From SAR324 cluster bacterium (GTDB lineage Bacteria > SAR324 > NAC60-12): a stretch of 64,000 nucleotides of DNA. The stretch lies in assembly GCA_015232315.1 (NCBI GenBank), contig JADFZZ010000003.1, forward strand, positions 156,732 to 220,731. Reading direction: 5' to 3'. The translations under genes were made by a program, and so were the position numbers. Within the stretch, counting starts at the first letter, position 1. Each line of letters begins with the position of its first letter. Shown in pieces: positions 7,969 through 32,067 of the stretch. The notes beneath the pieces are model-generated. The model made no database searches. It saw nothing but the letters and a program-made list of their open reading frames with translations, and had not been told where the DNA came from.

Positions 7969-9363
7969 ATGAGTATCGTTGTTCAAAAATTTGGAGGAAC
8001 CAGTCTGGGAAACAGTGACCGATTGAAGAATGTCGCGGGAATTATCAAAAATACCATCACCTCCCGGGATCTGGTTGTGGTAGTTTCAGCGCTGAGCAGT
8101 TATACCAAAGCGGAAGGAACCACCAACCGGTTATTGCAGGCAGGACAACTTGCCATTCAGGGCGGAGATTTTTCCAAGGTGATTGATCTGATTGAAGACA
8201 CCCATTTGACGGCATTGACACAATCCATCAAAAATCCGATGATCCGCGAAGAAATCAAGGAATATATTCATCATGAACTTCGATCTCTCAAGTCTTTTCT
8301 CGAAGCGATCCATGTGATTCGGGAAATTTCACCCAGATCGCATGACGTGATTGTCGGAACCGGCGAACGGCTGTCTGCCAGGCTGATGTCAGGGGTGTTG
8401 AGAGATCAGAATGTGGATGCGGTGTATGTTGATCTTTCCGAGATTTTACCGGGAACCCGCAACGTGCTGGATAAAAGCTATTACAGAGATCTGCAGAAAC
8501 TGATTGTAGAACATCTTCCCGAAAATCGGAAAACTGTAGCCATTGTCACAGGTTTTTTTGGTTTTGTTTATGGTGGCATCGTTGCCAGTATCGGACGTGG
8601 CTATTCAGACCTGACAGCCGCACTGATCGCCGCGGAACTCAAGGCTGAGGAATTACAAATCTGGAAAGAAGTGGATGGAATCTTCACCGCGGATCCCAGA
8701 AAAGTACCCACCGCCACAGTTCTGGATTACATCACTCCGGCAGAGGCTGCTGAATTGACCTATTTCGGTTCGGAAGTGTTGCATCCCTTCACCATGGAAC
8801 GGGCTATTGAAGCGTCTGTGCCGATTCGAATCAAAAACACCTTCACGCCTGAAAAACCGGGAACCGTTATTTTACCGTCTTCTCAAACTGTTGCACAGAC
8901 GAACCAGAAACAAACCGCTGTCGCTGTGACCACAAAAAAAGACGTAGTGATTATCAACATTCACTCCAACCGGATGCTGCATGCGTCAGGATTCATGTCC
9001 AAAGTGTTCAGCACTTTTCAGAAATTCGGAGTGATCGTGGATCTGATCGCGACTTCCGAAGTCAATATCTCCTGCACTTTAGATGACGCGGACCATCTGG
9101 AAGAGGTGATCAGGGATCTGGAGGGACTGGCCGATGTTACGATTTCCAGGAACAAAGCTATTCTAAGTCTGGTGGGCGAACGCATGAAATATGTTCCCGG
9201 AACGGCTGGTAAAATGTTCACGGCGCTGGCGCAACATAACATCAATATTGAAATGATTTCCCAGGGCGCGTCTGAAATCAATATTTCCTGTGTCATCCGT
9301 CAGGAAGATGCTGAGAAAGCGTTGAATGTGATCCATAAGACATTTCTGGAAAATAACGGATGA
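7969..9363 (+). CDS. Aspartate kinase (monofunctional, with C-terminal ACT domains)
   Basis: MSIVVQKFGGTSLG N-terminus. ACT-like C-terminal repeats (ILSLVGERM..., NISCVI...). ATG 7969 follows GAGAGAG. The track ORF starts at 7957. Confidence 0.9.
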   Translation: MSIVVQKFGGTSLGNSDRLKNVAGIIKNTITSRDLVVVVSALSSYTKAEGTTNRLLQAGQLAIQGGDFSKVIDLIEDTHLTALTQSIKNPMIREEIKEYIHHELRSLKSFLEAIHVIREISPRSHDVIVGTGERLSARLMSGVLRDQNVDAVYVDLSEILPGTRNVLDKSYYRDLQKLIVEHLPENRKTVAIVTGFFGFVYGGIVASIGRGYSDLTAALIAAELKAEELQIWKEVDGIFTADPRKVPTATVLDYITPAEAAELTYFGSEVLHPFTMERAIEASVPIRIKNTFTPEKPGTVILPSSQTVAQTNQKQTAVAVTTKKDVVIINIHSNRMLHASGFMSKVFSTFQKFGVIVDLIATSEVNISCTLDDADHLEEVIRDLEGLADVTISRNKAILSLVGERMKYVPGTAGKMFTALAQHNINIEMISQGASEINISCVIRQEDAEKALNVIHKTFLENNG

Positions 9364-9986
9364 AACAACAACAGATTGACCAGCTATTCATAAAACTGAG
9401 CGAAGCCATTCCAGATCCGACCACGGAATTGGTTCATAACAATCATTTTGAATTGCTGGTCGCTGTCATGTTGAGTGCCCAGGCAACAGACAAGTCCGTC
9501 AATCAGGTCACGCCAGCGCTCTTTGCGAGTTTTCCAACACCGGCTTTGATGGCAGAGGCAGGCGAACACGCCCTTCTGGAAAAAATAAAAACCATTGGAT
9601 TGGCAAAAACCAAGGCCCGAAATATTATAAAAACCTGCCGGATTCTTGTAGAAAAACATCAGGGAGAAGTGCCGGCAGACCGTGACGCCTTGGAAGCCCT
9701 TCCCGGTGTGGGTCGAAAAACAGCCAACGTGATTCTGAACACAGCGTTTCATGTACCAGTGATCGCGGTGGACACCCATGTTTTCAGGGTCTCAAACCGA
9801 ACCGGACTGGCCCCCGGAAAAACGCCGCTGGAGGTAGAAGAAAACCTGATGAAGTTTGTTCCCGAACGCTGGAAACAAGATGCCCACCATTACCTGATCC
9901 TTCACGGACGTTATGTCTGCAAAGCCAGAAATCCCACATGTGACACCTGCGCTGTTTCGCTGGAATGTGAACATCATGAGATTTGA
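9360..9986 (+). CDS. nth: Endonuclease III
   Basis: HhH-GPD motif LPGVGRKTANVIL and a C-terminal 4Fe-4S cluster loop C-x6-C-x2-C-x5-C (CKARNPTCDTCAVSLEC). Start overlaps the aspartate kinase stop. Confidence 0.92.
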   Translation: MKQQQIDQLFIKLSEAIPDPTTELVHNNHFELLVAVMLSAQATDKSVNQVTPALFASFPTPALMAEAGEHALLEKIKTIGLAKTKARNIIKTCRILVEKHQGEVPADRDALEALPGVGRKTANVILNTAFHVPVIAVDTHVFRVSNRTGLAPGKTPLEVEENLMKFVPERWKQDAHHYLILHGRYVCKARNPTCDTCAVSLECEHHEI

Positions 9987-10432
9987 TCGAAGGGGATGAA
10001 CTGTATACTAAAATTGGAAAAAACACGCTCCCCGTGGAATCTCTGGGTTGGACGTTGGTCCTGAGGGAACGATCTTCGCACTTTTTGTGGGCCCTGGAAT
10101 GTGGCCGCAAAGATCGGAAACTATTCAAGAAAGCAAAGAAAAAACTCAAACAAATGATCCGAAAAACAGGAGATTTGTCCCTGTTAACGGACGGAGAGCG
10201 ACGTTGTGGCAATTTACTGTTTGAAATCTGTAACCAGAGCATCCTCAGACCCAACAGAACCTGGATTCCCAGCAAATTCATGCCAATCATGTCGAAGCGT
10301 TCAATGCTTCCCTCCGAAGACGCTGTGCCGGATATCGCGGAAAACTGTCTACTCATTCTTGATACAAGGATCATCAAAACAAGTGTAGACCTCAACAGTC
10401 AGATGGGACAAATTTTTCATGTGACTCAATAG
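9983..10432 (+). pseudogene. DDE transposase fragment (IS1-like), lacking N- and C-terminal parts
   Basis: GDELYTKIGKN...GWTLVLRERSSHFLWALECGRKDRKLFKKA...LLTDGERRCGNLL resembles the DE..(Y/W)..(I/V)GKK / ...TD... core of IS1-type InsB proteins. It begins directly at the nth stop, and its 3' end is overlapped by the convergent CDF gene. Confidence 0.4.
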
Positions 10433-11338
10433 TGATTTATAATACTCAGGCTGTTTGGGAAAATGGGTGACAAGCGAGATGATCGATCCGCAGTGTTCAG
10501 GCCCTACTTTCCATAAATGCAGATCAGAAATCCGGTTATCCGAGTCCGCCTCAATTGTCTTTTTTATTTCAATTTTTTGACCTTCTTCCATAGTGCTGTC
10601 CAACAGGATGGGGCTTGTTTCTTTCAACAATCCAACAGCCCAAACGGTGATAACGCCGGCACCGGCGATTCCGATGACGGGATCCAGCCAGTTCCAGCCA
10701 AGGTATTTTGCGAACAACAGAGCGATCATCGCCAGCAGGGAGGTCATCATATCCGCAAGCACATGGAGGTATGCGGCCTTGAGATTGTGGTCGTGGTGGT
10801 CATGGTCATCGTCATCGTCATGGTGGTGGGCATCATGATCGTGGTGGTGGTGGTGCCCGTGTTCATGATGGCCATGGTGTCCCCGCAACAGAAAGGCGCT
10901 GAAGAGATTGATCAACAGACCAAAAAAAGCGACTCCGATGGCTTCATTGAAATGGATCTCCTGAGGCGTGAATAGACGTTGCACCGATTCGATTGCCATG
11001 ATCAGGGCGACAACTGCCAGGGCGACAGCGCTGGCAAATCCGCCAAGGACGCTGACTTTTCCGCTTCCAAAAGTAAATTGGGGATTTTGAGCGTTCCTGG
11101 CCGCATATTGATAGGCGAAGATGGTGATCGAAAACGCGGCCGCATGGGTGCCCATATGCCACCCATCTGCCAACAGTGCCATGGAGCCAAAAGCGATACC
11201 GGCGGTGATTTCAAGAACCATGGTCGTGGCGGTCAGGAACAGAACCTGTTTCGTTCTTTTTTCTCCCTGTTCCTGGATGGATGCAAAATCATGGGAGTGC
11301 TGCCATTTTTCAAGCGTTTGAGTGTGCATTTTTCTCAT
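10349..11338 (-). CDS. Cation diffusion facilitator, CzcD/ZitB-like, with a long His/Asp-rich cytoplasmic loop
   Basis: 329 aa, six TM segments, HSHDF N-terminus, loop HHGHHEHGHHHHHDHDAHHHDDDDDHDHHDHN, and a C-terminal CDF domain. An alternative start exists at 11329. Confidence 0.88.
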   Translation of the reverse strand: MRKMHTQTLEKWQHSHDFASIQEQGEKRTKQVLFLTATTMVLEITAGIAFGSMALLADGWHMGTHAAAFSITIFAYQYAARNAQNPQFTFGSGKVSVLGGFASAVALAVVALIMAIESVQRLFTPQEIHFNEAIGVAFFGLLINLFSAFLLRGHHGHHEHGHHHHHDHDAHHHDDDDDHDHHDHNLKAAYLHVLADMMTSLLAMIALLFAKYLGWNWLDPVIGIAGAGVITVWAVGLLKETSPILLDSTMEEGQKIEIKKTIEADSDNRISDLHLWKVGPEHCGSIISLVTHFPKQPEYYKSLLSHMKNLSHLTVEVYTCFDDPCIKNE

Positions 11339-11366
11339 CCTTCAACAGGGGTTCATCAATGAAAAA

Positions 11367-12035
11367 TTATCCAATTTTCCAGACAAAGATATTTTTGACA
11401 ATTTCTTCGTCCAGCGCCAGTTCCATTTGTTCAAACTTGATACAGAAAGCGGGTTTTTTACGATGCATCGCGACCACCACACCCGGCATGAGTCCAAAAG
11501 ACATCAACTGGTGCCAATTCGAGTGACTTCCGGGTTTGATGTAGGTAATTTTCCCTTGCTCACCTGGCTCAAGTTCATTCAACGGTGTCACGGTTTTATT
11601 GACAGTCCGATGACCATTTTTACAGCAGGGGCCTTGGGGGATCGGCCTTCCATCAGGGCAAACTTCGGGATGTCCCAGCAGGGTACAAATGGATTCTTCG
11701 ACTTCAGGAAGCAGACTGTGTTCAACCTGGCATGCGATTCTTTCCATTTCCGTTTTTTTCAGTTTCAGGATGCTGGTAACCAGCACTTCCGCCAGCCGGT
11801 GCCGTCGGATAATGGCCTCCGCGTGTTCTTTTCCCTTGCTCGAAAAAACCACCTTGTCGGTCGTCTTCACAATCATGCCTTGTTGTTCTAAGGCTAACAG
11901 ATCCTCAGCAATGATGTCTGTGGAACATTTTTTTTGAATGTCGGTTAAAGAATATTTTTTATTTTCTCCCGCACACCAAATGGCTTCCAGGACTTCTTCC
12001 TGTCGCTCATTGATTCTCAATTGCATCTCAGTCAT
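11367..12035 (-). CDS. DtxR-family metal-dependent regulator fused to a FeoA domain
   Basis: N-terminal winged HTH and RRHRLAEVLV (DtxR hallmark). C-terminal FeoA/SH3-like LEPGEQGKITYIKPG...LMSFGLMPGVVVAM. ATG 12035 is preceded by AGGAG. The track ORF start at 12083 would overlap feoB. Confidence 0.8.
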   Translation of the reverse strand: MTEMQLRINERQEEVLEAIWCAGENKKYSLTDIQKKCSTDIIAEDLLALEQQGMIVKTTDKVVFSSKGKEHAEAIIRRHRLAEVLVTSILKLKKTEMERIACQVEHSLLPEVEESICTLLGHPEVCPDGRPIPQGPCCKNGHRTVNKTVTPLNELEPGEQGKITYIKPGSHSNWHQLMSFGLMPGVVVAMHRKKPAFCIKFEQMELALDEEIVKNIFVWKIG

Positions 12036-12052
12036 TAAGAAACTCCTTTTTT

Positions 12053-14053
12053 TTAGACAAACGTTACGCCCAGCCAACGGCAAACATGATTCACGATACT
12101 ACACAGGATAATGGCATACGCCACGACAGCAATCATAATCGTAGAGGCGGCGCGGTTACCTCTTTCCTTGAACAGAACAATGATCGCGTTGATGCAAGGA
12201 GCCAGAAAAATCATCAGTAACAGATTCACAACCAACTGAAGGTTGGTATAAAGTCCTCGCAGGTGTTCAAGCTCAGCGGCACCACTTTCTCTACGAATCA
12301 TTGTTTTGATAAAAACCTGGATACTTTGCTCAGGCAACCCCAAAGCACTGTCGATCATTGGCCCAAAGGCTGTCTCAACAAATCTCAATCCCCCAAATCG
12401 CTGAAACAGAAAAACAACAATCGCGGCAAATATGAAAACCGGGACGGCTTCTTTCATGAAAAAATAAGTTTTGATGGCTGACATCTTGACTACATCCATC
12501 AATTTGGGAACACGCATGGTTGGTATTTCAAACACCATGGAACTGCTGCCGCCAACCATGATTTTATTGGCCACCATCCCCGCGAAAATCAGTTGTGAAA
12601 AAATGAAGAAAAACACTGTAATTGTCGCTGAGACCGGCAGGCTGTCCAGAATAATAAACATCACCGCGATCAATGGGGCACAGGGCATACAGAGAAAAAG
12701 TAAAAAAGAAGCAATGTTCTTTTCTTTATCGGTATTCAGGACTCGGGTTGTCAGGATTGCCATGGTGACACAGGAAAAACCCATGGTTAATGGAATGACG
12801 CCCTTACCGTTGAGTCCCATTTTTCTGAAAATGCGATCCAGCAAAATGGCAATACGAGGTAAATATCCGGAATCTTCCAAAATCCCGAAGGCGATGTAAA
12901 AGCAGAATATGACGGGCAATACCAACCCTAACGCCAGAAAAACCCCTGTGGGCAACACGCCAAAATCCGGGTCAACCAGCATATCTCTGAAAAATTCACT
13001 GGGAAGGTAAGAAACAAGTTGTGTTGTCCAGGGGATCAGGAATCCATCAAACAGGGTGCCATTGATGGTATCCACCAGAAACGTCGCGCCAAACGCCCCC
13101 ACAAAATAATACATCAGGGTCACCACCCCAAACGCAATGGGAATACCAGTGCTGAGCTGGGTACACCAGTCACCAAAGCGTAAAACCAAGGGATTTTCTG
13201 AAGGGGGTTCTTTGGTTTGCACCTCTTCAGCAAGTTTTGTTGCTTCTTTGTTGTAAAGGTTACTGAGGGGAATTTCAAAGGTGGTTGGGGATTCTTGCCG
13301 GTATTCTTCAGCCAACTGTTGTAACTGTAGTAGCATTCCGGATCCGTATTTTCGTTCAACATAGGTTTCAATCCCGATGTCTCCTGACAGCAGAAGCAGG
13401 CCAATCGCACGGGATGACAGTTGTTGCGGCGATAGCAGTTTTTCTACCAACTCCAGGTACTGTTCAACCTTATCGGAATAGTGGAGTAAAGCCTTCGGTT
13501 TTCTGGCGTGTCCTAATCCTGCGACTAATTCCGGAACTCCGATGCCTTCCCGGGCAATGGTGGTGAAAACAGGTATCCCTAATTTTTCTGAAAGTTTGTG
13601 ATAATTGATCGAAATGCCTCTCGAGGGTGCTTCATCCACCATGTTCACTACAAACACCATCGGCAGACCATACTCCGCATACTGTAATGTGAGGGCCAGT
13701 GATTGTTTCAATTTTTTAGCGTCTGCTAACAATATGATGCAAGGCTGATGGTCTTCAATTCCAGGCATTAAGAACACATCTCGTGAGGCGCGTTCATCTT
13801 CATTTTGCGAAAAAAGAGAATAAATGCCCGGCGTGTCATAAATGGAACTGTCCAGACCTTTTATCTGCCCCCTCGACACTGAAACGGTTGTTCCGGGAAT
13901 GTTAACACTCAAATTCTGAGAACCAGACAGTCTGGAAAACAAGGTTGATTTACCAACATTCATGTTTCCAATGATGACCGCGTTAGACGCAGCCAGGGTC
14001 GACGTTTCGCAGGCATCGTGTTGATCAGAATGGCATTTTTTACATTTAGTCAT
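12053..14053 (-). CDS. feoB: Ferrous iron transporter FeoB
   Basis: 666 aa. G-domain GNMNVGKSTLFSRLSG followed by a polytopic membrane domain. It carries an unusual Cys/His-rich N-terminal extension, MTKCKKCHSDQHDAC. Confidence 0.92.
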   Translation of the reverse strand: MTKCKKCHSDQHDACETSTLAASNAVIIGNMNVGKSTLFSRLSGSQNLSVNIPGTTVSVSRGQIKGLDSSIYDTPGIYSLFSQNEDERASRDVFLMPGIEDHQPCIILLADAKKLKQSLALTLQYAEYGLPMVFVVNMVDEAPSRGISINYHKLSEKLGIPVFTTIAREGIGVPELVAGLGHARKPKALLHYSDKVEQYLELVEKLLSPQQLSSRAIGLLLLSGDIGIETYVERKYGSGMLLQLQQLAEEYRQESPTTFEIPLSNLYNKEATKLAEEVQTKEPPSENPLVLRFGDWCTQLSTGIPIAFGVVTLMYYFVGAFGATFLVDTINGTLFDGFLIPWTTQLVSYLPSEFFRDMLVDPDFGVLPTGVFLALGLVLPVIFCFYIAFGILEDSGYLPRIAILLDRIFRKMGLNGKGVIPLTMGFSCVTMAILTTRVLNTDKEKNIASFLLFLCMPCAPLIAVMFIILDSLPVSATITVFFFIFSQLIFAGMVANKIMVGGSSSMVFEIPTMRVPKLMDVVKMSAIKTYFFMKEAVPVFIFAAIVVFLFQRFGGLRFVETAFGPMIDSALGLPEQSIQVFIKTMIRRESGAAELEHLRGLYTNLQLVVNLLLMIFLAPCINAIIVLFKERGNRAASTIMIAVVAYAIILCSIVNHVCRWLGVTFV

Positions 14054-14322
14054 AAATCACAAACTCAGGGGTTCAACGGATTGACTGGCTTGCGGAAACG
14101 TGTGTTCGCCAGAACTTTACAGGTGATACGTTCAACGTTCCAAAGCACAAATTATCTTGCTATTGTGTAGGGGAAAACTAATGCTCACCAATAGCAAATT
14201 GGTCATTTCGTATATGGTTAATATTGTGCAAAGTCAATTGGTTAAATTGAGAAATTTGAGAATTGCCAGAGCTTTGGTAATTTGTTTTTTGGACAACATG
14301 ACACTTCAATAAAAGGAACATT

Positions 14323-14946
14323 ATGGGCGATTGTTGCAGTAACGCGGGATGCGAAATTGAAAAACTCAGAGAGCGGCAATATGGAACTTTAAAATGGGTA
14401 TTGATCATCAACGCAACCATGTTTCTGGTGGAAATGACCGCGGGAATCATGGCTCATTCGACAGCCCTCCTTGCCGATTCATTGGACATGTTGGGTGATG
14501 CCATTACCTATGGTTTCAGCTTGTATGTGGTCAACCGATCAATGCTGTGGAAAGCAAAAGCCTCGCTATTGAAAGGCGGGATCATGGCCAGCTTCGGAGT
14601 GTTTGTGTTGGGAGAAGCCGTCTACAAGATTTTGTATCCAACCGTTCCAACCTATGAAACCGTTGGTGCGATTGGTCTTCTAGCTCTGGTCGCAAATGCT
14701 TATTGTCTGTTCCTTTTGTGGCAACATAGATCTGAAGACATCAACATGCGTTCTGTTTGGCTTTGCTCCCGAAATGATATCATTGCCAATGTATCAGTTT
14801 TAGCTTCCGGGGTGGGTGTTTGGCTGACTCACGAACAGTGGCCCGATATTGTTGTGGGGCTTGGAATTGCGACCCTCTTTTTACAAACTTCGTTTCATGT
14901 CATTAAAGAAGCCCTGGCTGTAGTCCCCGAAAGCCAAAATGCATGA
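14323..14946 (+). CDS. Short cation diffusion facilitator (transmembrane domain only)
   Basis: 207 aa. TM2 motif LLADSLDMLGD. Six TM segments, and the protein ends right after TM6 with no cytoplasmic CTD. Cys-rich N-terminus MGDCCSNAGCE. Confidence 0.75.
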   Translation: MGDCCSNAGCEIEKLRERQYGTLKWVLIINATMFLVEMTAGIMAHSTALLADSLDMLGDAITYGFSLYVVNRSMLWKAKASLLKGGIMASFGVFVLGEAVYKILYPTVPTYETVGAIGLLALVANAYCLFLLWQHRSEDINMRSVWLCSRNDIIANVSVLASGVGVWLTHEQWPDIVVGLGIATLFLQTSFHVIKEALAVVPESQNA

Positions 14947-15281
14947 TGTTTTATTTGGACTATAAATATAAAAATTACCTCTTGAAAAGTAATTTAATTC
15001 GTATATAAGAAGATTATTCACTTCATAAGGTAATTTTTTATTAACAGGAGACGACACATCTCCAAATGAAACAACTTGAAAGGCAGGGGTTTATGATTTC
15101 GGAAATAATAATTGTTATTGCGACAATCTATTTTGGATACATTTTTTTCACAAAAGTGTCTCAGTTCTTCAGCAAGGTATTTCGGGTTGTGACATTGATT
15201 TATTTGGAAGATAAAATCCGGGCCATTAATGAAAGGGGCGCCTCTGCTTAAAAATCCAGAGGCCTGAGGCGATGATGGGTT

Positions 15282-15716
15282 TTATACGAAATGAACATGT
15301 CCTTTGGCCTCCAAATCCCTGAGGACCGTTTGGCAAAACCCTTGTTTTCCTCTGATAAGAAAGGTTTTACGCTCTCCTTTTTCATGTGTAAACAAGCCCC
15401 ACAACAGTTCAACTTTTTTATAATCGGGGCTGGTCCACTCAATTTTGAATTCTTCATCGACCTGAGTCATCTTTTTAAGGGAGAAACCTAAGGAAGAGAC
15501 TGGAATCTGCTTACGTTTCCGCTTAAAGGTTTCTTCTGTGATGACGATTGGTTTTGCTTGTTCAAGCTCATTTGTTTTATGCGTTTTTTGTGTAATGACA
15601 ATTGGCACAGTTTCAATTTTTTCCTGCCGCTGAGCGTTTTTCCCCACTGTAGAAACAGCAATCAGTTTTCTATTCATTTTTGAATTTTCCGGCAATTTTT
15701 TGAATTTTTTATGCAT
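15282..15716 (-). CDS. Hypothetical protein, translationally coupled to mamK copy 1
   Basis: ATG 15716 follows GGAGGAG with a 5-nt spacer and overlaps the mamK-1 stop (ATGCATAA). 144 aa with a Lys-rich N-half. The C-half reads FSLKKMTQVDEEFKIEWTSPDYKKVELLWGLF.... No family recognised. Confidence 0.6.
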   Translation of the reverse strand: MHKKFKKLPENSKMNRKLIAVSTVGKNAQRQEKIETVPIVITQKTHKTNELEQAKPIVITEETFKRKRKQIPVSSLGFSLKKMTQVDEEFKIEWTSPDYKKVELLWGLFTHEKGERKTFLIRGKQGFCQTVLRDLEAKGHVHFV

Positions 15717-17241
15717 TAACTCCTCCTTCAATGACTTCGCCTAATTCATTCCAGTTTTCAACTGGAACCTCCATCGCAATTTTCAAAGCTCCATGACATC
15801 CCGCAAAATCAGGATCTTCAACACCTGTCACATAGACCGACCCATAATCCCTCAGATGTTCCTGCAAAACTTTATCCAGCCCTTTTATCCTGGAACAACG
15901 TCCTGAAAGATAGATGTTATTCAAGGTATCATCCTGATCTTCCGGATCAATCCGTTGTAGCAGTGTTTCCATACAATCCAGGATCGGTTCGATCAAGGTT
16001 TCACAGGCTGTTCTGATTTCTCTGGTAAGGTCAAACTGTTGAGGTTTCCCCGCTACCCTTAACGTCACAATCACCGATTTTTCGGGTTTACCGACAAAGG
16101 CATGCTGCTCTTTGATCGATTGTACCTGTTTTTTTGAAATTTGAACTTCGGGAAAGTGTTCTGAAATCAATTTTTTTAATATGTGATCAATATAATCCCC
16201 TCCCTGGGCAATCGTTAATTGCTCCTCGTCTTCAGGAATTTTTCCTGTCAAAACACAGATATCCGTCGTGCCGGCACCAATATCGATCACAATCGCATGA
16301 TTCAATTTCCCTAATCCATAGGCCACCATGAATGGCTCAGAAACAACAAGTGTTGTCCCTGCCAAATCCCGGGCCAGTTTGAGGAGATCTTCCTTGTGGT
16401 TGAATGATGTTCTTGCGGGGACACCAATGACAAGGGAAATGTCGTCGTGTTCCCCGGGTTGTGCCAGCTTCACCGCATGCTCAAGAATTAATCTGGCAGA
16501 ATCCATTTCTGTTGCTTTGATCACACCAGCTTCCAGTGGATAATGGATATCAAGCGATGATTGTTTCGAAAGAGCCTCTTCGCCAATCGCTTTTGTTCCA
16601 TTCAACAACTGAGCTCCAATAAGATCCTTCGGATAACCCACGACTGAAGGAAACATGGCTTTTGCGCCTCTATTGGATTGAACCGCGGTTTTTGATGTAC
16701 CCAGTTCAATGCCGATTCTCAGTTGATTGCTTGAATCTTTATTCATCGCGGAACCCCCAGGTTGTTTTGAATCAGTGGTCATTATTTTTTTAGCGGCCTG
16801 GATGTTTTGTGCCAGTTCCTCAACTTTACGGAGCAAGCTCCCGTGTGAGGGTTTTTGCGGTGCGGCTGGTGATTCAACGGATGATTTCGTTGATTCTTTT
16901 TCATGAGTTGCTTCACGTTTCAGGGGCTCCTTTTTTGTTTTATTGTTGCCTGATTGAGCGTCTGCTTCTGTTGTGAGCGATTTTGGGCCTGTCTTGTCAT
17001 TCCTGGCCGTGGTTCCCAGTATGGCATTTTTCACCAGGGATACGGCAGAGGTTTTATCTTTTTTTTCAGGCTCATCCGCAGATGCGGATTCATCAATTTT
17101 TTCAGAGGCCTTAAACGTTTCCACAACATGTTCTTTGGCGGTTAGGGTTTCCTCAGTCTGATCATCAGCATCTGGTTGACCAGCAATCTTGTCAGGATTG
17201 CCTAATAACATCCCCATGATGTCTGGTGTGTTTTTACGCAT
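15709..17241 (-). CDS. mamK: Actin-like magnetosome filament protein MamK (copy 1) with a ~170-aa acidic/Lys-rich N-terminal extension
   Basis: The C-terminal ~337 aa are colinear with the copy at 31042-32067 and carry actin-fold motifs (LRIGIELGTSKT, VIDIGAGTTDI, IYLSGRCS). ATG 17241 overlaps the parA-like stop (ATGCGTAA). An internal alternative start lies at ATG 16746 (MNKDSSNQLRIG). Confidence 0.85.
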   Translation of the reverse strand: MRKNTPDIMGMLLGNPDKIAGQPDADDQTEETLTAKEHVVETFKASEKIDESASADEPEKKDKTSAVSLVKNAILGTTARNDKTGPKSLTTEADAQSGNNKTKKEPLKREATHEKESTKSSVESPAAPQKPSHGSLLRKVEELAQNIQAAKKIMTTDSKQPGGSAMNKDSSNQLRIGIELGTSKTAVQSNRGAKAMFPSVVGYPKDLIGAQLLNGTKAIGEEALSKQSSLDIHYPLEAGVIKATEMDSARLILEHAVKLAQPGEHDDISLVIGVPARTSFNHKEDLLKLARDLAGTTLVVSEPFMVAYGLGKLNHAIVIDIGAGTTDICVLTGKIPEDEEQLTIAQGGDYIDHILKKLISEHFPEVQISKKQVQSIKEQHAFVGKPEKSVIVTLRVAGKPQQFDLTREIRTACETLIEPILDCMETLLQRIDPEDQDDTLNNIYLSGRCSRIKGLDKVLQEHLRDYGSVYVTGVEDPDFAGCHGALKIAMEVPVENWNELGEVIEGGVNA

Positions 17242-17971
17242 AGACCCTCTCGGTAAGTTGTTCATAATCTATTGCGCCTTGAGATTGAGGAGCAAATTCA
17301 TAGATGGTTTGCGCATATCCCGGTGCTTCAGAGAGTCGAACATTGTAATGAATCGGATTACAAAGTCGATCAGGATAAAATTCTTCCAACTGTTTTAATA
17401 TTTCTACAGATTTTTTAACGCGTCCATCCAGAAAAGTAGGGACAATATAGCGTAATTTTAAGTTTTTATTGTATTTCTGAACAGCTTCCACACTCTTGAT
17501 AAAGCTTGAAAGGCCATGAATGGTCATGACTTCCAGTGAAATCGGGCACAGAATTTCTTCAGCATAAAACAGGACATTCAAGGTCACTGAATCCCACCCC
17601 GGTGAGGTATCGACCAATACAAAATCAAACTTTTTTTCAATGGATGTGAACGCTTCTGAAAGGGTGTATTCCCCCCCGAGGTCTGTTCTGTCAATCAAAC
17701 GTTTGATCCCGGCTATTTCACGTCCTCCCGCGATAATCCACAGATTTTCTCTGACTTGAATGGTTGCCTCATCCACGCCACAGTCCCCAGTGATCACATC
17801 TGACAGATTCACTTTAGGTTTCAAACCAAACATGAAAGACACCTGCCCCTGTGTATCAGTGTCCAACAGCAAGACCCTGGCCCCTTTTTTCGCAAGGCCG
17901 GCAGCGAGATTCACTGCCGTCGTGGTTTTTGCGACCCCCCCCTTACTCAATGATATGGCAATTTTTCTCAT
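17234..17971 (-). CDS. ParA/MinD-family P-loop ATPase
   Basis: Deviant Walker A SKGGVAKTT, then LLLDTDTQG and Walker B FVLVDTSPG. ATG 17971 follows GGAGA. The track ORF begins at TTG 18016. Confidence 0.85.
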   Translation of the reverse strand: MRKIAISLSKGGVAKTTTAVNLAAGLAKKGARVLLLDTDTQGQVSFMFGLKPKVNLSDVITGDCGVDEATIQVRENLWIIAGGREIAGIKRLIDRTDLGGEYTLSEAFTSIEKKFDFVLVDTSPGWDSVTLNVLFYAEEILCPISLEVMTIHGLSSFIKSVEAVQKYNKNLKLRYIVPTFLDGRVKKSVEILKQLEEFYPDRLCNPIHYNVRLSEAPGYAQTIYEFAPQSQGAIDYEQLTERVYA

Positions 17972-18289: not shown

Positions 18290-18547
18290 GTGAGAAAAAT
18301 GAAAATTTTAAATTTTGAAACCAATGATATAAAAAATAAGCTGAAACTAGACAGTATGCCCAACGGGAATCTATTTGTCGGATTGGTGGTCTGCCTCCTT
18401 GGTTTTTGGGGACTCTATGTCTGGTGGTGGTCTGTTGCGGAAGTGTTACGGGGAGTTGTGCCCATTATCCTTATTTTATTCGGTTTGGTTGCAATTGGCG
18501 CAGGTATCTCTAAAAAACAAACCAATAACCAGGTCGATGAAAAATAA
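18290..18547 (+). CDS. mamI: MamI (copy 1)
   Basis: Two-TM hairpin with the hallmark GFWGLYVWWWSVAEVLRGVVPI, matching GLWSLFIWWWSVAEFLRGFTPI in copy 2. The start is uncertain (GTG 18290, ATG 18299 or ATG 18356). Confidence 0.8.
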   Translation: MRKMKILNFETNDIKNKLKLDSMPNGNLFVGLVVCLLGFWGLYVWWWSVAEVLRGVVPIILILFGLVAIGAGISKKQTNNQVDEK

Positions 18548-18558
18548 AAAAGGCTGTT

Positions 18559-20091
18559 ATGAGTTCTGATACTGGAAATTGTCCCAGAAGATTGCGCAAA
18601 TATTTTTACATGATTCCAATCGCTTCAGTCGCGCTTGTTTTTTTCCTGTACTGGAACGATATGTTCTTTGACAATCGTACTCACAAAGGGACGACCGCAG
18701 AGATGTTCAGTGTGGCCTTCAATGCGTTGACAGGAGGTGATAATCCGACGACTTCTGTACAGGCACGTCAAAATCCAATGCCTTATGCCCAAAATCCTGT
18801 TGCCGTGCCTGTGGCGCAAGCCCCTCAGAATACGATGATATATGGACAACAGCCCTTTGCGAATTCGCCTCAAAATGCCACGACTCTTGCCCAAACTCCC
18901 TTTGTCGTGCCTGTAGTCCAGGCCCCTCAGAATAAGATGAGTTTTGCGCAAACCCCCTATGCTGTTCAGGTTGTTGAATCGCCCTTCACTCGAGTTGCTG
19001 AGTTTGCTAAACAAACTGTAGTGAATATCAGTGCGTTGCGTTTTACCGGTGCGCAACAAAATATGCAACCGGATACTCAGCAACCTACGTTCACCGCACC
19101 ATTCAGTGGTCAGGCCGTTGAAAGTATCGGTTCGGGGGTGATTGTTACGCAAGATGGGTATATTGTTACAAATTTTCATGTTGTTGAAAATGCTGATGAA
19201 ATTTTTGCGACAGTTTTTTTAAATAATGGATCGACCCAGTATCATGCCGATGTCATTCAATTATCTGAACTGCTGGATCTCGCGCTCATCAAAATTGAGC
19301 CGGCGACGCCTTTACAACCGGCACCTTTGAGTGATGAGAATCGCGTCATCAGAGTGGGCGAAGAAGTGTTGGCCATCGGCAGTCCTTTTGGTCTTGATCA
19401 AACAGTGAGCAAAGGAATCATTTCAGGCTTAAAAAAATCAATCCGGATTGATAACATTACCCACAAAAACCTGATCCAGACTGATGCCGCGATTAATCGT
19501 GGAAACTCCGGAGGCCCGCTGGTTGATATGGCCGGTTATGTGATCGGAGTTAACACCGCGATTTTTACTCCAACCGCTTCTTTCGTGGGAATCAGTTTTG
19601 CCATCCCATCGACCGAGGTTATCGAATTTCTGGAAGGTCTCATCACACTCCCCACGGTGCAGCCAAACTTGAACACTCCTGCAACAGCAACTCGAGTCGC
19701 AGGGCAAAAACTACCCTCAGTTATTGGCGAAAATCGCTTTTCAATACCTCCGTATGTTCCTTCGCAGGGGATGAACGTTGCCTTTAATCCCAATGGAAAC
19801 ATTGTGGAGTGGATGGGCGCCGAACTGACCGACATCACAACGGCCATACAAAAGAATTTTAATCTGGATAGCGGTGCGTTTCTGACCAATGTGTATTCCG
19901 GATCGAATGCCGACAAGGCCGGATTGCAACCTGGCGATGTGATATTCAGGGTTGATGGCAGGCCCGTTGGAAATGTCAATGAGCTGATCAATTTTGCTGA
20001 TCAAAATGGCGGTACCGCTCGTGTGTCAGTCATCAGGAATGGTCAAAAACGCAACATTGATATTGATATTGACAACAATAAAGCCCCTTGA
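18559..20091 (+). CDS. mamE: MamE-like HtrA/trypsin-type serine protease with one PDZ domain and no magnetochrome (copy 1)
   Basis: 510 aa: TM, Gln/Pro-rich linker, intact triad contexts TNFHVV / LDLALIKI / GNSGGP, and a C-terminal PDZ (GLQPGDVIFRVDG). No CxxCH motif anywhere in the protein. Confidence 0.85.
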   Translation: MSSDTGNCPRRLRKYFYMIPIASVALVFFLYWNDMFFDNRTHKGTTAEMFSVAFNALTGGDNPTTSVQARQNPMPYAQNPVAVPVAQAPQNTMIYGQQPFANSPQNATTLAQTPFVVPVVQAPQNKMSFAQTPYAVQVVESPFTRVAEFAKQTVVNISALRFTGAQQNMQPDTQQPTFTAPFSGQAVESIGSGVIVTQDGYIVTNFHVVENADEIFATVFLNNGSTQYHADVIQLSELLDLALIKIEPATPLQPAPLSDENRVIRVGEEVLAIGSPFGLDQTVSKGIISGLKKSIRIDNITHKNLIQTDAAINRGNSGGPLVDMAGYVIGVNTAIFTPTASFVGISFAIPSTEVIEFLEGLITLPTVQPNLNTPATATRVAGQKLPSVIGENRFSIPPYVPSQGMNVAFNPNGNIVEWMGAELTDITTAIQKNFNLDSGAFLTNVYSGSNADKAGLQPGDVIFRVDGRPVGNVNELINFADQNGGTARVSVIRNGQKRNIDIDIDNNKAP

Positions 20092-22543: not shown

Positions 22544-23869
22544 ATGTCAATGATCGCAAGCTGGCTCTGGAATCCTCTGCTCAGCTTTATATATATTGAA
22601 CTGGGTGTGCTGATACTCGTCCTCACTGGATTTGCCGCCTGGCGTAACGTGATTCCAGCTCTAAGGAACAGTTGGACGCAAAGAAACCTCCATAAAAAAC
22701 AAGAGGATGACCATGCTCGTTATATCTCACCTGTTCATGGATTTTTTGCCGCACTGGCCGCAAGCGTTGGCGTTGGTAATTTAGCGGGTGTCGGTACTGC
22801 CATTCATCTGGGAGGCCCGGGGGCCTTGTTCTGGATGTGGGTTTCAGCACTGGTTGGGATGAGTTTTCGTTTGTGTTCTGTCTGGTTGGCAATGCGTTAT
22901 CAAAGCGAGGATCACACAGATCTGGCTTATGCAACGCCCATGTCCTACTTGCAACGATTACAACCGGGTTGGGCCTGGATTCCTGTGGCGTTGGCCACCC
23001 TGTTGATGGTTAAGGGCTTTATCACCTCCAATCTGATTCAATCCAACTCCGTTGCTCATGCGTTGCAGGACGAATTGGGAATTTCCAGTTTTCTGGTTGC
23101 AATCTGCATGTCTGCTCTGGTGGCGTTTGTGATTCTTGGCGGGATGCAGAGAATCGTAGATTTCAGTGTGACAGTGGCGCCCTGGATGGTGCTGGTTTAT
23201 TTCATTGGTGGAATGGTCATTTTATTATCAAACCTGTCAGCCACTGTTCAGGTTATTGGTCTGGTTTTTAAGCATGCTTTCACACCTTATTCCGCCACTG
23301 GTGGACTGATTGGTTATGGCGTTCTGCAAAGCATCCAGTTTGGAACATCCAGAGGCATTTTTTCGCATGCCTCTGGAATCGGAGTTGCCCCGTTTCTTCA
23401 TGCAACGAATAATGCCAGTAAAAAGGATAATGCCTATCTTGCCGCATTTGTTCCCGTTGTAGATACCTTGATTGTCTGTTCGGTGACAGGCCTGGTCATC
23501 CTGACTGTTGGAAACTGGACCCGGTTCAATGGTGCCTATTTAACCTCTTCCTCTTTTCAGTCGTTTTATGGAAACTGGGGCGTTGTGATGCTCATGACTT
23601 GTTTGGTCGTCTTTGCGTTCACCACCATGATCAGTTGGGCCTATTATTCTGAACGATGTTATCAATACCTTGGCGGAACAAGAATCCGGGCATTCCGTTG
23701 GTTCTTTGTGTTCATCACGTTTTGCGGTCCTTTTCTTCCAGTTCGCCTGATTTGGTCAGTTGCGGATATCATGATTGGATTGGTCATTATTATCCATCTC
23801 TTCCCTCTGGTTTATCTGGTTCTACAGCATCGAGATGATTTACTGAGAGAATTGGTTGGCGATCACTGA
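22544..23869 (+). CDS. Alanine/glycine:cation symporter (AGCS) family transporter
   Basis: 441 aa. Signature ALAASVGVGNLAGVGTAIHLGGPGALFWMW. Polytopic membrane protein. Confidence 0.8.
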   Translation: MSMIASWLWNPLLSFIYIELGVLILVLTGFAAWRNVIPALRNSWTQRNLHKKQEDDHARYISPVHGFFAALAASVGVGNLAGVGTAIHLGGPGALFWMWVSALVGMSFRLCSVWLAMRYQSEDHTDLAYATPMSYLQRLQPGWAWIPVALATLLMVKGFITSNLIQSNSVAHALQDELGISSFLVAICMSALVAFVILGGMQRIVDFSVTVAPWMVLVYFIGGMVILLSNLSATVQVIGLVFKHAFTPYSATGGLIGYGVLQSIQFGTSRGIFSHASGIGVAPFLHATNNASKKDNAYLAAFVPVVDTLIVCSVTGLVILTVGNWTRFNGAYLTSSSFQSFYGNWGVVMLMTCLVVFAFTTMISWAYYSERCYQYLGGTRIRAFRWFFVFITFCGPFLPVRLIWSVADIMIGLVIIIHLFPLVYLVLQHRDDLLRELVGDH

Positions 23870-25749: not shown

Positions 25750-25944
25750 ATGCCAAGTATAGTTGTAGGAACATTGTCTTTTGCTTTAGGATTGTGGAGT
25801 TTGTTCATTTGGTGGTGGTCTGTGGCTGAATTTTTACGGGGATTCACACCTATCGCTCTCATATTGTTCGGACTGATTGCCATAGGCGCATCAATGTCCA
25901 CAAAGGAAAACAGGACAAAGGACAAAAAGGATAATGACTTATGA
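25750..25944 (+). CDS. mamI: MamI (copy 2)
   Basis: ATG 25750 lies 7 nt after GGAG. 64 aa: MPSIVVGTLSFALGLWSLFIWWWSVAEFLRGFTPIALILFGLIAIG. The stop overlaps the mamE-2 start (ATGA). Confidence 0.85.
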   Translation: MPSIVVGTLSFALGLWSLFIWWWSVAEFLRGFTPIALILFGLIAIGASMSTKENRTKDKKDNDL

Positions 25945-28695: not shown

Positions 28696-30816
28696 ATGGC
28701 TAGTGGAGAAAGTAATCAAATAAGAAGACAGTCTACAAGACAAGCAGATGCATCAGAGACTGTTCTGCAATTGAACAGGCTTGAGACAAACCCCTGGAGA
28801 AATACCGGGGAGAGTTCACGAATTTCTTCGTCAATTATCACAAGAACCTTGCCTCGATCAAATAATGAAGATTCTGACCAGCCAAGGAACTTTGTCAAAT
28901 TTTCAGAAAACGAAAATCCATGGAAAAAAGCTGAAACCCAACAACCCGAAAAGGTCGGACCCCTGAACATTACTAAAAGGACCCATGTATACCATGCAAC
29001 GAATAATCCATGGGATCGAGCCGCTGAGCGAGAGCGTATAGCCGCGGAACAACGCCTTGCGGCGCAAAAGGCTGAAGAGGAAGCAAAAGCGGCAATTGCC
29101 GAGCAGGAACGACAATTGAGAGAAGCCGAACTGGAACGCATCACAGTTCAACGGGCTTTGGATGAAAGAAAAGCGGCAATTGCCGGGCAGGAACGACAAT
29201 TGAGAGAAGCCGAGTTGAAACGTTTGACTGAGCAGAAAAAAGAAGAGACTCGAAGAGCGGCTTTGGCTGAACAGGAGCTTCAGGCAAAAGAAGCTGAACT
29301 GAAGCGTTTGGCCGCACAAAAAGAAACTGAGGCCCGAAGAGCGGCGTTGGCTGAGCAGGAGCTTCAGGCAAAAGAAGCTGAACTGAAGCGCTTAACTGAA
29401 CAAAAAGCGGCAGAGGCGGGAAGATTGGCCTTGGTAGAACAGGAACTTCTGGCAAAACAACGGGAACTTGAACAGCAATCCTCGAAGGAAAAAGAAAAAG
29501 AGTACCTTGCCGAACAGGAAATTCAGACAACTGAAGAAGATTCGGAAACGCAGGATTCCGAACATGAGCAGGAACTTCAGGCAAAAGAAGCTGAACTGAA
29601 AATTTTAGCTTCGGAGAAGGCCGAAGAAGAAAGAAAAATTGCTTTGCTTGAGCAGGAGCGTCAGGCAAAAGAAACCGAATTGAAGCGTTTGGCCGCGGAG
29701 AAAACCGAAGACGAGAAAAGAGCCGCGATGGCAGAGCAGGAGCGTCAGGCAAAAGAAACCGAATTGAAGCGTTTGGCTGCGGAGAAAGCCGAAGACGAGA
29801 AAAGAGCCGCGATGGCAGAGCAGGAGCGTCAGGCAAAAGAAGCCGCATTAGAACTTCAAGTTGCTCAGAAAGCAGCAGAAACAAGAAAAGCGGCTCTTGC
29901 AGAGCAAGAACGTCAGTTAAAGGAAGTAGAGCAGGAACTTCACGCAGCACAGAAGGCCGAAGAAGAAAGAAGATTTGCCCTGTATGAACAAGAACGTCTG
30001 GCAAAGGAAGCTGAGGAGGACCGTTTGGAAAAGGAAGCAGAATTAGAAAAACAAGCCTTTGAAATTCCCGGTGAAAATACAAGCCGACGGGGTTTTAATA
30101 TTCCTAAAATCATGCTGGAACGCCAATCTGTTCAGGAACGTCAGGCAAAAGAAAAGGCAGAGGCTGAACTGAAAGCTTCTCAAGTAGCCCGGGAAGACCG
30201 GGCAAAAGAAAAAGCAGAGGCTGAAAGAACCGCATCCCTTGCGACCAGCGAAAGTCAGGCCCGTGAAGTGGAATCTGAACCACGGGTATCCCCGGAGAAA
30301 ACCACAAAGGTAGAAAATGAAACAGCACTGGTTGTTGTTAATACAAAGCAAAAGAAAAAAAGGTCTATAGCGGTTTCAGGTGTTGGAAGCAAACGTGTGT
30401 CTCTCCCAAAAGTGCGTGAGACTTCTGATAAAACAGACACTGTCAGGAAAAAAGTTGGTTTCGGATTTTTTAGAGCTAAAGCAAAAGGAGAAACCGAAAC
30501 CAAAAATGAAAATTCAGTCATCAAACCGGCTTTGCAAAGCCGACTTGGTTTTCGTAAAAAGGTAGAAACTGAAAATTCTGAAGCCAGGTCACAAACACCT
30601 AAAAAAATAAATTTCGGGAAATCCTTCAAATTACCGGATTTTTCAATAGCGTCATCCAAACCAAAACAGAAAATCAGTATTGAGGTTTCAGGAACTAAAG
30701 AAGCATCAACTTCCGAAACTGAAACGTCTTTAATCAAAGCCAGGTCAGGGAATACACTGGACTCTGGAAAAAAACTTTTTACTTCCTATGAAGTAAAAAG
30801 AAAGAAAAAAGCATAA
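28696..30816 (+). CDS. Highly charged repeat / coiled-coil protein at the mamJ position
   Basis: 706 aa. A G-rich RBS lies upstream. About eleven tandem 28-aa E/K/A/Q-rich repeats (e.g. AEQERQAKETELKRLAAEKAEDEKRAAM) are followed by a Ser/Lys-rich tail. No family recognised. Confidence 0.8.
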   Translation: MASGESNQIRRQSTRQADASETVLQLNRLETNPWRNTGESSRISSSIITRTLPRSNNEDSDQPRNFVKFSENENPWKKAETQQPEKVGPLNITKRTHVYHATNNPWDRAAERERIAAEQRLAAQKAEEEAKAAIAEQERQLREAELERITVQRALDERKAAIAGQERQLREAELKRLTEQKKEETRRAALAEQELQAKEAELKRLAAQKETEARRAALAEQELQAKEAELKRLTEQKAAEAGRLALVEQELLAKQRELEQQSSKEKEKEYLAEQEIQTTEEDSETQDSEHEQELQAKEAELKILASEKAEEERKIALLEQERQAKETELKRLAAEKTEDEKRAAMAEQERQAKETELKRLAAEKAEDEKRAAMAEQERQAKEAALELQVAQKAAETRKAALAEQERQLKEVEQELHAAQKAEEERRFALYEQERLAKEAEEDRLEKEAELEKQAFEIPGENTSRRGFNIPKIMLERQSVQERQAKEKAEAELKASQVAREDRAKEKAEAERTASLATSESQAREVESEPRVSPEKTTKVENETALVVVNTKQKKKRSIAVSGVGSKRVSLPKVRETSDKTDTVRKKVGFGFFRAKAKGETETKNENSVIKPALQSRLGFRKKVETENSEARSQTPKKINFGKSFKLPDFSIASSKPKQKISIEVSGTKEASTSETETSLIKARSGNTLDSGKKLFTSYEVKRKKKA
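29030..30050 (+). repeat. Array of 84-bp (28-codon) tandem repeats within the 706-aa gene
   Basis: Units 29651-29734 and 29735-29818 are almost identical. Earlier units (about 29270-29440) form a second near-identical pair, and the outer units are more diverged. Confidence 0.85.
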
Positions 30817-31041: not shown

Positions 31042-32067
31042 ATGAAAAAAACACAATTGAGAATAGGTATTGATCTTGGCACATCAAGAACAGCAGTTCG
31101 TTCAGACCGTGGCGCAAAAGCCGTTTTTCCATCGGTGGTCGGGTATCCACGAGACATTATTGGAACCAAGCTGTTGAATGGAACAAAAGCCGTGGGTGAT
31201 GATGCCATTGAAAAAAGGTCATACTTGACGCTGATCAATCCTCTGGATTTGGGCGTGATCAAGGAAACAAGTGAAATCGATATGGAAGCGGCAAAAGATA
31301 TTTTGGAACATGCCATAGCGATTACGCAACCGGAAGAACATGATGAGATTTGTGCTGTGATTGGTGTTCCTGCCAGAGCCTCCTTTTCCAACAAGGAAAC
31401 TCTGCTTCGCTTGGCAAAAGAACTGACTGAAGTGACACTGGTCGTTTCTGAACCATTCATGGTGGCCTATGGGATGGGCAAACTGAACAAGGCTATCATG
31501 ATTGATATTGGTGCCGGAACAACGGATATTTGCGCGTTGAAAGGGGTTGTGCCCAATTCAGAGGATCAGGTTACAATCTCAAAAGGCGGAGATCATATTG
31601 ACCATCTGTTGAAGGCGATGATACAGGAACATTACCCTGATATTCAGATCACCAAACGCGTTGTTCAGAATATTAAAGAAAAATACTCCTTCGTTGGAGA
31701 CATCAAAGAACCGGTGATCGTTCAGTTCAGAGCCAATGGAAAACCCAAGGAATATGATGTGTCTAAAGAAATAAAAGCCGCCTGTGAATCTTTGATAGCG
31801 CCGATTGTCGAGCAGGTTGAATATTTACTGGTCCGGTTTGATCCTGAAGATCAGGAAGAAGCATTACTGAATATTTATCTTGCTGGAAACGGATCTCTGA
31901 TCAGGGGCCTGGACAAAGCAATCGCGGAAAAACTGAAGGAATGTGGTGAGGTCAAGGTGTCCTGTGTGGCTGATCCTGATTTTGCAGGATGCAATGGGGC
32001 CTTGAAGCTCGCGGTGGATCTGCCGATTGAGCACTGGCATCAAATCGGAGACGTCATAGGATCTTAA
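31042..32067 (+). CDS. mamK: Actin-like magnetosome filament protein MamK (copy 2)
   Basis: ATG 31042 follows GAGGGGG. 341 aa with LRIGIDLGTSRT, MIDIGAGTTDI and IYLAGNGS. The track ORF start at 30865 runs through REP-like hairpins and is unlikely to be real. Confidence 0.9.
   Translation: MKKTQLRIGIDLGTSRTAVRSDRGAKAVFPSVVGYPRDIIGTKLLNGTKAVGDDAIEKRSYLTLINPLDLGVIKETSEIDMEAAKDILEHAIAITQPEEHDEICAVIGVPARASFSNKETLLRLAKELTEVTLVVSEPFMVAYGMGKLNKAIMIDIGAGTTDICALKGVVPNSEDQVTISKGGDHIDHLLKAMIQEHYPDIQITKRVVQNIKEKYSFVGDIKEPVIVQFRANGKPKEYDVSKEIKAACESLIAPIVEQVEYLLVRFDPEDQEEALLNIYLAGNGSLIRGLDKAIAEKLKECGEVKVSCVADPDFAGCNGALKLAVDLPIEHWHQIGDVIGS

Follow-up and report, generated by a model that had tools for sequence, protein, structure and literature searches.

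The 64,000-nucleotide stretch analysed here (the window; positions 156,732 to 220,731, forward strand, of contig JADFZZ010000003.1 in assembly GCA_015232315.1 of a SAR324 cluster bacterium) is a magnetosome gene cluster whose nearest relatives are found in SAR324 metagenome-assembled genomes (MAGs) and in 'Deltaproteobacteria bacterium TL4', with whose clusters it is syntenic. One of its two genes for the actin-like protein MamK, mamK1, was found to begin with an N-terminal module of ParA-partner proteins that is fused in frame to the MamK domain. Judged from the sequences, this fusion is a real feature that has been missed in public annotation, and the function given to it below is one that we infer. 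In the reading that we hold probable, mamK1 encodes a ParA adaptor joined to an actin, is translated mainly or partly from the ATG at position 17241 of the window and is coupled to the parA-like gene upstream. The 510-aa product would then consist of four pieces, namely a 15-residue ParA-contact peptide, a disordered polyampholyte linker of ~120 residues, an amphipathic helix and a complete MamK.

On the minus strand, parA, mamK1 and a third gene, orf144, are joined by overlapping stop and start codons, with parA as the first gene of the unit. The parA-like gene (17234..17971) encodes a 245-aa ATPase whose Walker A motif is deviant (SKGGVAKTT) and which matches the Pfam families AAA_31, CbiA and ParA. 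The mamK1 open frame (15709..17265) is 518 aa long and has candidate starts at 17265, 17241 and 16746. The second of these, residue 9 of the 518-aa frame (M9 below), is an ATG (17241-17239) that overlaps the parA stop codon TAA (17236-17234) in the junction ATGCGTAA (17234..17241), and this overlap suggests that parA and the long MamK1 are translationally coupled. The segment that runs from M9 to the codon before the internal ATG at 16746 (17241-16747) comprises 165 codons and coincides exactly with the extension delimited in a first-pass annotation of the window.

Counted from M9, the long form opens with the peptide MRKNTPDIMGMLLGN (17197..17241), which carries the motif of ParA-partner proteins and is a putative ParA-docking and ATPase-stimulating peptide. 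It is followed by a predicted disordered linker (16843..17196, residues 16-133), acidic in its first part and basic in its second, by the predicted amphipathic helix GSLLRKVEELAQNIQAAKKIMT (16777..16842, residues 134-155) and by a short variable linker (16747..16776), which holds the Shine-Dalgarno (SD)-like sequence GGGGG (16758-16754) upstream of the internal ATG. The remainder (15709..16746) is the MamK actin-like core, identical to the public 345-aa call (P0001) that starts at ATG 16746. Only this 345-aa MamK1 is used by the public gene calls, here and in a second genome described below, which leaves an apparent intergenic gap of 487 nt after parA. Public annotation thus truncates mamK1, and the gap is falsely intergenic in both genomes.

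The upstream frame has the properties of coding sequence. Over the 173 codons upstream of 16746, no stop codon occurs in the MamK frame, whereas the two remaining frames of that strand contain 7 and 21; the probability of such an open frame is 1e-4 by mononucleotide shuffling, 3.8e-4 by dinucleotide shuffling and 1.4e-4 analytically. Using a codon log-odds score trained on 39 other genes of the window, the extension obtained 0.247 per codon, which equals the mean of in-frame windows from real genes (off-frame 99th percentile, 0.03). Its G content at codon positions 1, 2 and 3 (0.36, 0.09 and 0.19) is that of real genes, and its choice of synonymous codons fits the genes of the genome (z = -0.9) and departs from base composition alone (z = +3.8). 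On the coding strand, no promoter- or terminator-like site was found between parA and 16746, and neither Rfam families nor tandem repeats were detected in the extension.

An orthologous locus with 97.5% nucleotide identity (L008) was identified in the SAR324 MAG GCA_015231535.1, contig JADGBI010000041. It was reached by a search with ParA, since that assembly has an annotated 'ParA family protein' with 99% identity to the ParA of the window; searches of genome and metagenome contigs with the MamK1 protein returned no close relative beyond its own 345-aa public call. The presence of the extension in an orthologue, which had been named at the outset as a check on its translation, was established in L008, where the upstream frame is kept open and free of indels across the apparent gap (L008 3022-3508). 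A sequencing frameshift or assembly artefact as the cause of the fusion is ruled out by this independent assembly with the same frame. Eight of the 16 substitutions that separate the two extensions are synonymous, compared to a neutral expectation of 23% (binomial P = 0.017), and among the nonsynonymous ones, S to T, K to R and I to V predominate. The pN/pS ratio is 0.30 for the extension, 0.44 for the MamK1 core, 0.39 for orf144 and 0.05 for parA. The comparison indicates that the extension frame is kept by selection, in a test of modest power because a single close relative was compared. Given the open frame, the gene-like codon usage and this purifying selection in a second genome, the arm is very probably translated as part of MamK1, which bears out the earlier argument for translation from the frame being open from the parA stop.

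The substitutions are unevenly spread. There are none between 17300 and ~17145, so that the ribosome-binding site of M9 and the first 32 codons are unchanged, and the helix GSLLRKVEELAQNIQAAKKIMT shows solely the conservative changes K to R and I to V. By contrast, the 18 nt upstream of the internal ATG carry six substitutions, by which the SD energy falls from -9.6 kcal/mol in the window to -5.7 kcal/mol in L008. The SD-like site of M9, GAGAGGG, has an energy of -6.3 kcal/mol and is thus weaker than the internal site of the window. ATG 17241, rather than 17265, is probably both the ancestral and the current start of mamK1. The first-pass annotation had cautioned that the internal ATG could yield a standard-length MamK instead or in addition, and fairly so: a short MamK may be made from the internal start as well, and both forms could co-exist.

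The ParA of the window led to the origin of the N-terminal peptide. Among the matches listed, it is 57-63% identical to 119 further homologues, which comprise small ParAs and zinc-ribbon ParAs. The alignment of ParA was used to fetch 80 metagenomic loci. At no fewer than 21 loci, each with a small ParA that shares 46-62% identity with that of the window, a gene of 75-150 aa overlaps the ParA stop codon and carries at the very start of its protein the shared motif (R/K)KxTPD[IVL][LM]Gx[LI]L; this count comes from inspected loci, an automated motif count having missed some that were found by inspection. The overlap between ParA and partner in these related loci spans 8-26 nt, being often the same 8 nt as in the window and otherwise 11-26 nt. 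On contig L009, for instance, the gene that overlaps the ParA stop opens with MADTKRKETPDILGSLLGG, just as the long MamK1 opens with MRKNTPDIMGMLLGN, and the partners of locus L019 and of a Rhabdochlamydia plasmid open with MAERKKTPDILGSLLGG and MVDRLETPDIMSSLMS, respectively. None of 20 loci with a zinc-ribbon ParA had the motif. A hidden Markov model (HMM) of 16 positions, built from 18 partner N-termini, matched solely the mamK1 frame among 1147 six-frame open reading frames of the window (E = 2e-5; next best, 3.3), with the alignment starting at M9. From these comparisons we have little doubt that the first 15 residues of the long MamK1 are homologous to the N-termini of ParA partners. As the signature peptide of such partners, they argue for a ParA adaptor arm rather than an analogue of MamJ.

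After the motif, the partners continue with a low-complexity linker rich in P, A, K and S, and then with either a ribbon-helix-helix (RHH)-like domain (KATYYL...) or a DUF4177-like domain, the latter with a score that does not reach the Pfam threshold; no curated family exists for either type of partner. These proteins (L009-L061 and NZ_CP075586) thus make up an uncurated ParA-partner family with the motif RKxTPD[IVL]LGxLL and interchangeable C-terminal domains. In partners of ParA/MinD ATPases, a charged disordered N-terminus binds the ATPase and the remainder binds the cargo (PMC10241942), and the DUF4177-type partners suggest that this ParA subfamily may also serve non-DNA cargos. The complete 19.7-kb Rhabdochlamydia plasmid NZ_CP075586 carries the same pair, with a ParA 53% identical to that of the window, which indicates, by sequence relationship, a plasmid-partition origin of the ParA/partner pair.

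In MamK1, the small C-terminal cargo domain, whether RHH-like or DUF4177-like, was not found, and MamK takes its position. HMMs of the full-length type A and type B partners aligned to MamK1 over just the motif and, nonspecifically, the linker; the arm therefore holds no RHH or DUF4177 remnant. The downstream gene orf144 was tried as the missing partner domain, with a negative result: it is not a split-off C-terminal domain of a partner and matches no Pfam family. Upstream of parA, no centromere-like repeats were found.

The architecture of the long MamK1 can be compared to that of two kinds of ParA/MinD partner, the small ParG-type proteins that bind centromeres in plasmid partition and McdB of carboxysomes. 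Like these, it is encoded directly after the ATPase with a start that overlaps the ATPase stop, and it has a short charged N-terminal peptide and a disordered linker; the N-terminal motif itself is shared with the partner genes of its own ParA subfamily, that of the Rhabdochlamydia plasmid included. Unlike these proteins, its cargo part is a complete actin-like domain in place of an RHH-like or DUF4177-like one and would itself polymerise, and the locus differs from ParG-type plasmid systems in lacking centromere-like repeats upstream of parA.

The arm had been described as acidic and of low complexity. It is indeed biased in composition (K, A, T, E and S; entropy 3.83 bits), and its first 70 residues are acidic (residues 9-78, net -7), but the rest is basic (residues 79-173, net +6), so that the whole, with 27 D+E vs 26 K+R, has a net charge of -1 and a pI of 6.3, and it contains no tandem repeats. 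Similarly, the statement that it has no predicted fold motifs held for Pfam and NCBIfam, which gave no match on residues 1-181 of the 518-aa frame, and failed for one predicted helix. In an AlphaFold run on an alignment of 40 MamKs, residues 11-130 from M9 had a pLDDT < 50, which predicts disorder, and were followed by the helix GSLLRKVEELAQNIQAAKKIMT (pLDDT 62-70) and by a confident actin fold (pLDDT > 90). The hydrophobic moment of this helix, 0.49, is the highest in the arm. Homologues of the arm were found neither by phmmer among 1.84 billion representative proteins nor by a word-index search of 5.8 billion proteins; as there are none beyond the motif, the homology of the motif is supported by a short peptide and its location.

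The core is a MamK by family model and by fold. The NCBIfam model NF040964 matched with 426.7 bits (cutoff 400), over residues 182-512 of the 518-aa frame only, and the Magnetospirillum MamK structure 5LJW matched at E = 7e-98 over residues 170-503 from M9 (5JYG and 5LJV, ~1e-97). All 41 invariant columns of the MamK alignment are kept, and the near-invariant phosphate-1 Asp of GIDLGT is replaced by Glu (GIELGT). This residue (E187 of the 518-aa frame; window 16681-16683) is the same in L008, and GIDLGT is found in at least 90% of 40 aligned MamKs. Glu187 may change the ATPase activity or the filament dynamics of the divergent MamK1. As in Magnetospirillum, the gene lies in a magnetosome cluster; unlike the Magnetospirillum protein, MamK1 is extended, is a divergent second copy with the Asp-to-Glu change, and is paired with parA instead of a mamJ-like gene.

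The other copy, mamK2 (31042..32067), stands in the usual mamK-mamM-mamO-mamQ-mamB context, and MamK1 is 60% identical to its product. As noted in the first-pass annotation, MamK2 has 341 aa and lacks an extension, with 8 residues before the fold. In the best 120 homologues of MamK1, the median number of residues before GIxLGT is 13, vs 176 in MamK1, and N-terminal extensions of several unrelated kinds occur in roughly one tenth of them. Such extensions, disordered or helical and 36-156 aa long, are found in TL4 P0025 (490 aa), in the Magnetococcales protein P0026 (467 aa) and in P0023, P0013, P0009, P0006, P0015 and P0019. MamK1 resembles them in having its core preceded by a disordered or helical segment, and it resembles P0025 (L001 1096-2568) in being an extra copy outside the mamAB-like operon of the syntenic cluster. 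It differs from all of them in sequence; none has RKxTPDI, and none of those inspected lies directly after parA. Two genes with a LFTSYEV motif flank that of P0025, whose extension is obligatory since the nearest in-frame start codon lies 35 codons ahead of the fold. A relation between the arm of MamK1 and the P0025 extension was rejected (E = 0.38), the 86% BLAST coverage being low-complexity padding.

Three other accounts of the upstream frame were weighed. We think it unlikely that only the 345-aa MamK1 is made, from 16746, and that the upstream frame is a functionless fossil ParA-partner gene which has lost its cargo domain and stop codon and is either wastefully translated or untranslated. 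The internal SD is a strong one, comparable to those of mamK2 (-12.0 kcal/mol) and of a 706-aa gene (-9.9 kcal/mol), and the product has the canonical length chosen by the gene callers in both genomes. It is, however, precisely the region of the internal SD that changed in L008, whereas motif and coupled start are unchanged, and an untranslated fossil should have gained stops and indels, while none is seen in this A-rich strand or between the two genomes. The gene-like codon usage, the selection measured on the extension and the lack of a promoter- or terminator-like site between parA and 16746 also speak against it. In its favour, the arm has no homologues beyond the motif, and the fusion was seen in one lineage only.

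It is quite unlikely that the arm acts on MamK itself, by controlling polymerisation or bundling or by binding the membrane through its helix in the manner of the N-terminal helix of MreB, with the ParA motif as a leftover. The position of the amphipathic helix just before the fold would suit such a role, as would the existence of several unrelated MamK lineages with extensions of 30-156 aa, some of them helical and all without the ParA motif, of which that of TL4 is obligatory. Yet the part of the arm that is best conserved in L008 is the region of the ParA-partner motif, not the helix or the linker, and the strongly constrained parA is apparently coupled in translation to the long start.

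The built-in MamJ-like tether proposed in the first-pass annotation, that is, an acidic disordered arm linking magnetosome membranes to the MamK filament without ParA, is very unlikely, for the arm, although disordered, hydrophilic, acidic over its first 70 residues and placed where acidic or coiled-coil genes precede mamK in related clusters, is nearly neutral, lacks repeats and resembles nothing, neither MamJ in the phmmer search nor the local LFTSYEV proteins, whose C-terminal motif it does not have, while a separate 706-aa candidate already precedes mamK2 and the ParA-partner motif and coupled start would be left unexplained. MamJ-like adaptors are poorly conserved and encoded beside their cognate mamK (PMC10653835), and like MamJ and Mg-1g50 of strain MV-1, the arm is a disordered hydrophilic segment tied to its cognate MamK, here just upstream of the actin fold (PMC10653835); unlike them, it is fused instead of being encoded by a separate gene, is not net acidic, has no repeat domain and shows no detectable similarity to any protein.

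In the SAR324 and TL4 clusters, mamK is flanked by acidic or coiled-coil proteins, belonging to no Pfam family, whose bodies are unrelated but which share the C-terminal motif LF(T/V)S(Y/H)(E/D)V(V/K/R)KK. These proteins are encoded at L003 8595-9626 and 9645-9995, L001 634-1068 and 2715-4718, L004 2-415, L005 1-708 and L006 7807-9774. In the window, the 706-aa coiled-coil protein encoded directly upstream of mamK2 (28696-30816, plus strand) ends with LFTSYEVKRKKKA, its last residues being ...KKLFTSYEVKRKKKA. The LFTSYEV tail may be a shared MamK- or magnetosome-binding tail of MamJ-like adaptors. That the arm of MamK1 is a fused copy of such a protein was rejected, since the best E in a BLASTP comparison with nine such local proteins was 0.44 and the motif is lacking.

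We return to mamK1 as a ParA-adaptor/actin fusion. The fusion would have arisen when the cargo domain of the partner family, RHH-like and of the DNA-binding type on plasmids, or DUF4177-like, was swapped for MamK. Translation from 17241 would then give filaments of MamK1 which, with the magnetosome chain, would form a multivalent cargo of the ParA ATPase. Arms extending from the filament would bind to dimers of ATP-loaded ParA and speed up their ATP hydrolysis, and the resulting ParA gradient would position or partition the filament on the nucleoid, as it does for plasmids and carboxysomes. If both isoforms are made, arm-less MamK1 from the internal start 16746 may co-polymerise with the long form and so set the density of arms. 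An N-terminal arm is compatible with polymerisation, since MamK with an N-terminal EGFP still forms filaments (PMC10653835). That MamK1 is linked to ParA by its arm in vivo seems to us about as likely as not. Taken as a whole, the locus suggests that the magnetosome cytoskeleton has been connected directly to a ParA positioning motor like those of plasmids. More tentatively, a plasmid-type ParA module could have been captured by the magnetosome cluster, the DNA-binding domain of its adaptor being swapped for an actin and the filament becoming the cargo of a ParA gradient.

Other magnetosome clusters also have a ParA near mamK. The order mamI-mamE-parA-X-mamK was found at L003 7843-9626 (SAR324 GCA_015231825) and at L092 2898-4956 (JGI Ga0063294); the two ParAs share 46% identity with one another and 32% with that of the window. 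Downstream of the ParA, both loci encode a separate protein that is disordered or coiled-coil; in L092 it is the product of a 422-aa gene before mamK. The protein after the ParA of L003 has a basic N-terminus, KKKRMGSNPLEFI, and the C-terminal LFTSYEVVKK shared with the mamK-flanking proteins; its start, MVEKKKRMGSNPLEFI, is similar to the N-termini of partners from a further group of ParAs (L058 and L059, RRRKSLGRDPFEG). From these unrelated ParAs between mamE and mamK, ParA-type ATPases appear to have been recruited beside mamK more than once, and those of other lineages may do the same job via separate adaptors. A search of the literature found no account of a ParA recruited next to mamK.

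Several observations weigh against the fusion as we read it. The short form is the one picked by both public gene calls, and from its internal ATG, which follows the stronger SD in the window, a canonical MamK would be made, with 11 residues ahead of the fold (family median 13). The selection test comprises 16 substitutions and one close relative, and the fusion was seen in one lineage only, that of the window and L008. Beyond the 15-residue motif the arm is without homologues, and the partner motif is absent from the other extended MamKs, such as TL4 P0025, P0026 and P0023. Within its clade, MamK1 is also the MamK that has diverged most (51-60% identity; pN/pS 0.44), which, together with the Glu in place of the phosphate-1 Asp, makes its filament activity only putative. 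Finally, the source organism is an uncultured MAG, and the functional steps are drawn by inference.

Around mamK1 lie mamI-like, mamE-like, magnetochrome, LemA/mamQ-like and CDF genes. The third gene of the minus-strand unit, orf144 (15282..15716, 144 aa), has an ATG that overlaps the mamK1 stop (ATGCATAA) and, upstream, the ribosome-binding site GGAGGAG; it is annotated as 131 aa in L008. A 144-aa gene of TL4, located upstream of its long MamK, shows a faint likeness to it (VSSLGFSLKK/VSSLGLKLG) that is not significant (E = 2). On the plus strand there are two genes for mamE-like trypsin/PDZ proteases of 510 and 912 aa (18290-20091 and 25941-28679); the first is preceded by a mamI-like open reading frame of 85 aa, and the second has magnetochrome-type CxxCH repeats. 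A gene for a Na+/alanine symporter (22544-23869) is also found in the cluster and is kept in the SAR324 relative and in TL4. The cluster is adjoined by an iron and metal transport block (8000-14950) with genes for FeoB (12053-14053), a truncated CDF protein of 207 aa (14323-14946) and a DmeF-type CDF protein (10349-11338), and a selenoneine SenB-like glycosyltransferase is encoded at 1149-2147.

The positioning and segregation of the magnetosome chain have been explained by treadmilling of MamK, in explicit contrast to ParA-type systems (PMC5059902), and other foreign MamKs have already been expressed heterologously (PMC10653835). With the N-terminal motif defined here, which characterises a ParA-partner family that is not curated, the cargos of orphan ParAs can be sought. 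If the proposed function of the long MamK1 is true, it would be the first indication that the MamK and ParA machineries can be physically coupled, and an actin filament would join the list of ParA/MinD cargos. The locus would then be a natural case in which segregation machineries of type I (ParA) and type II (actin) are combined into a hybrid that positions an organelle.

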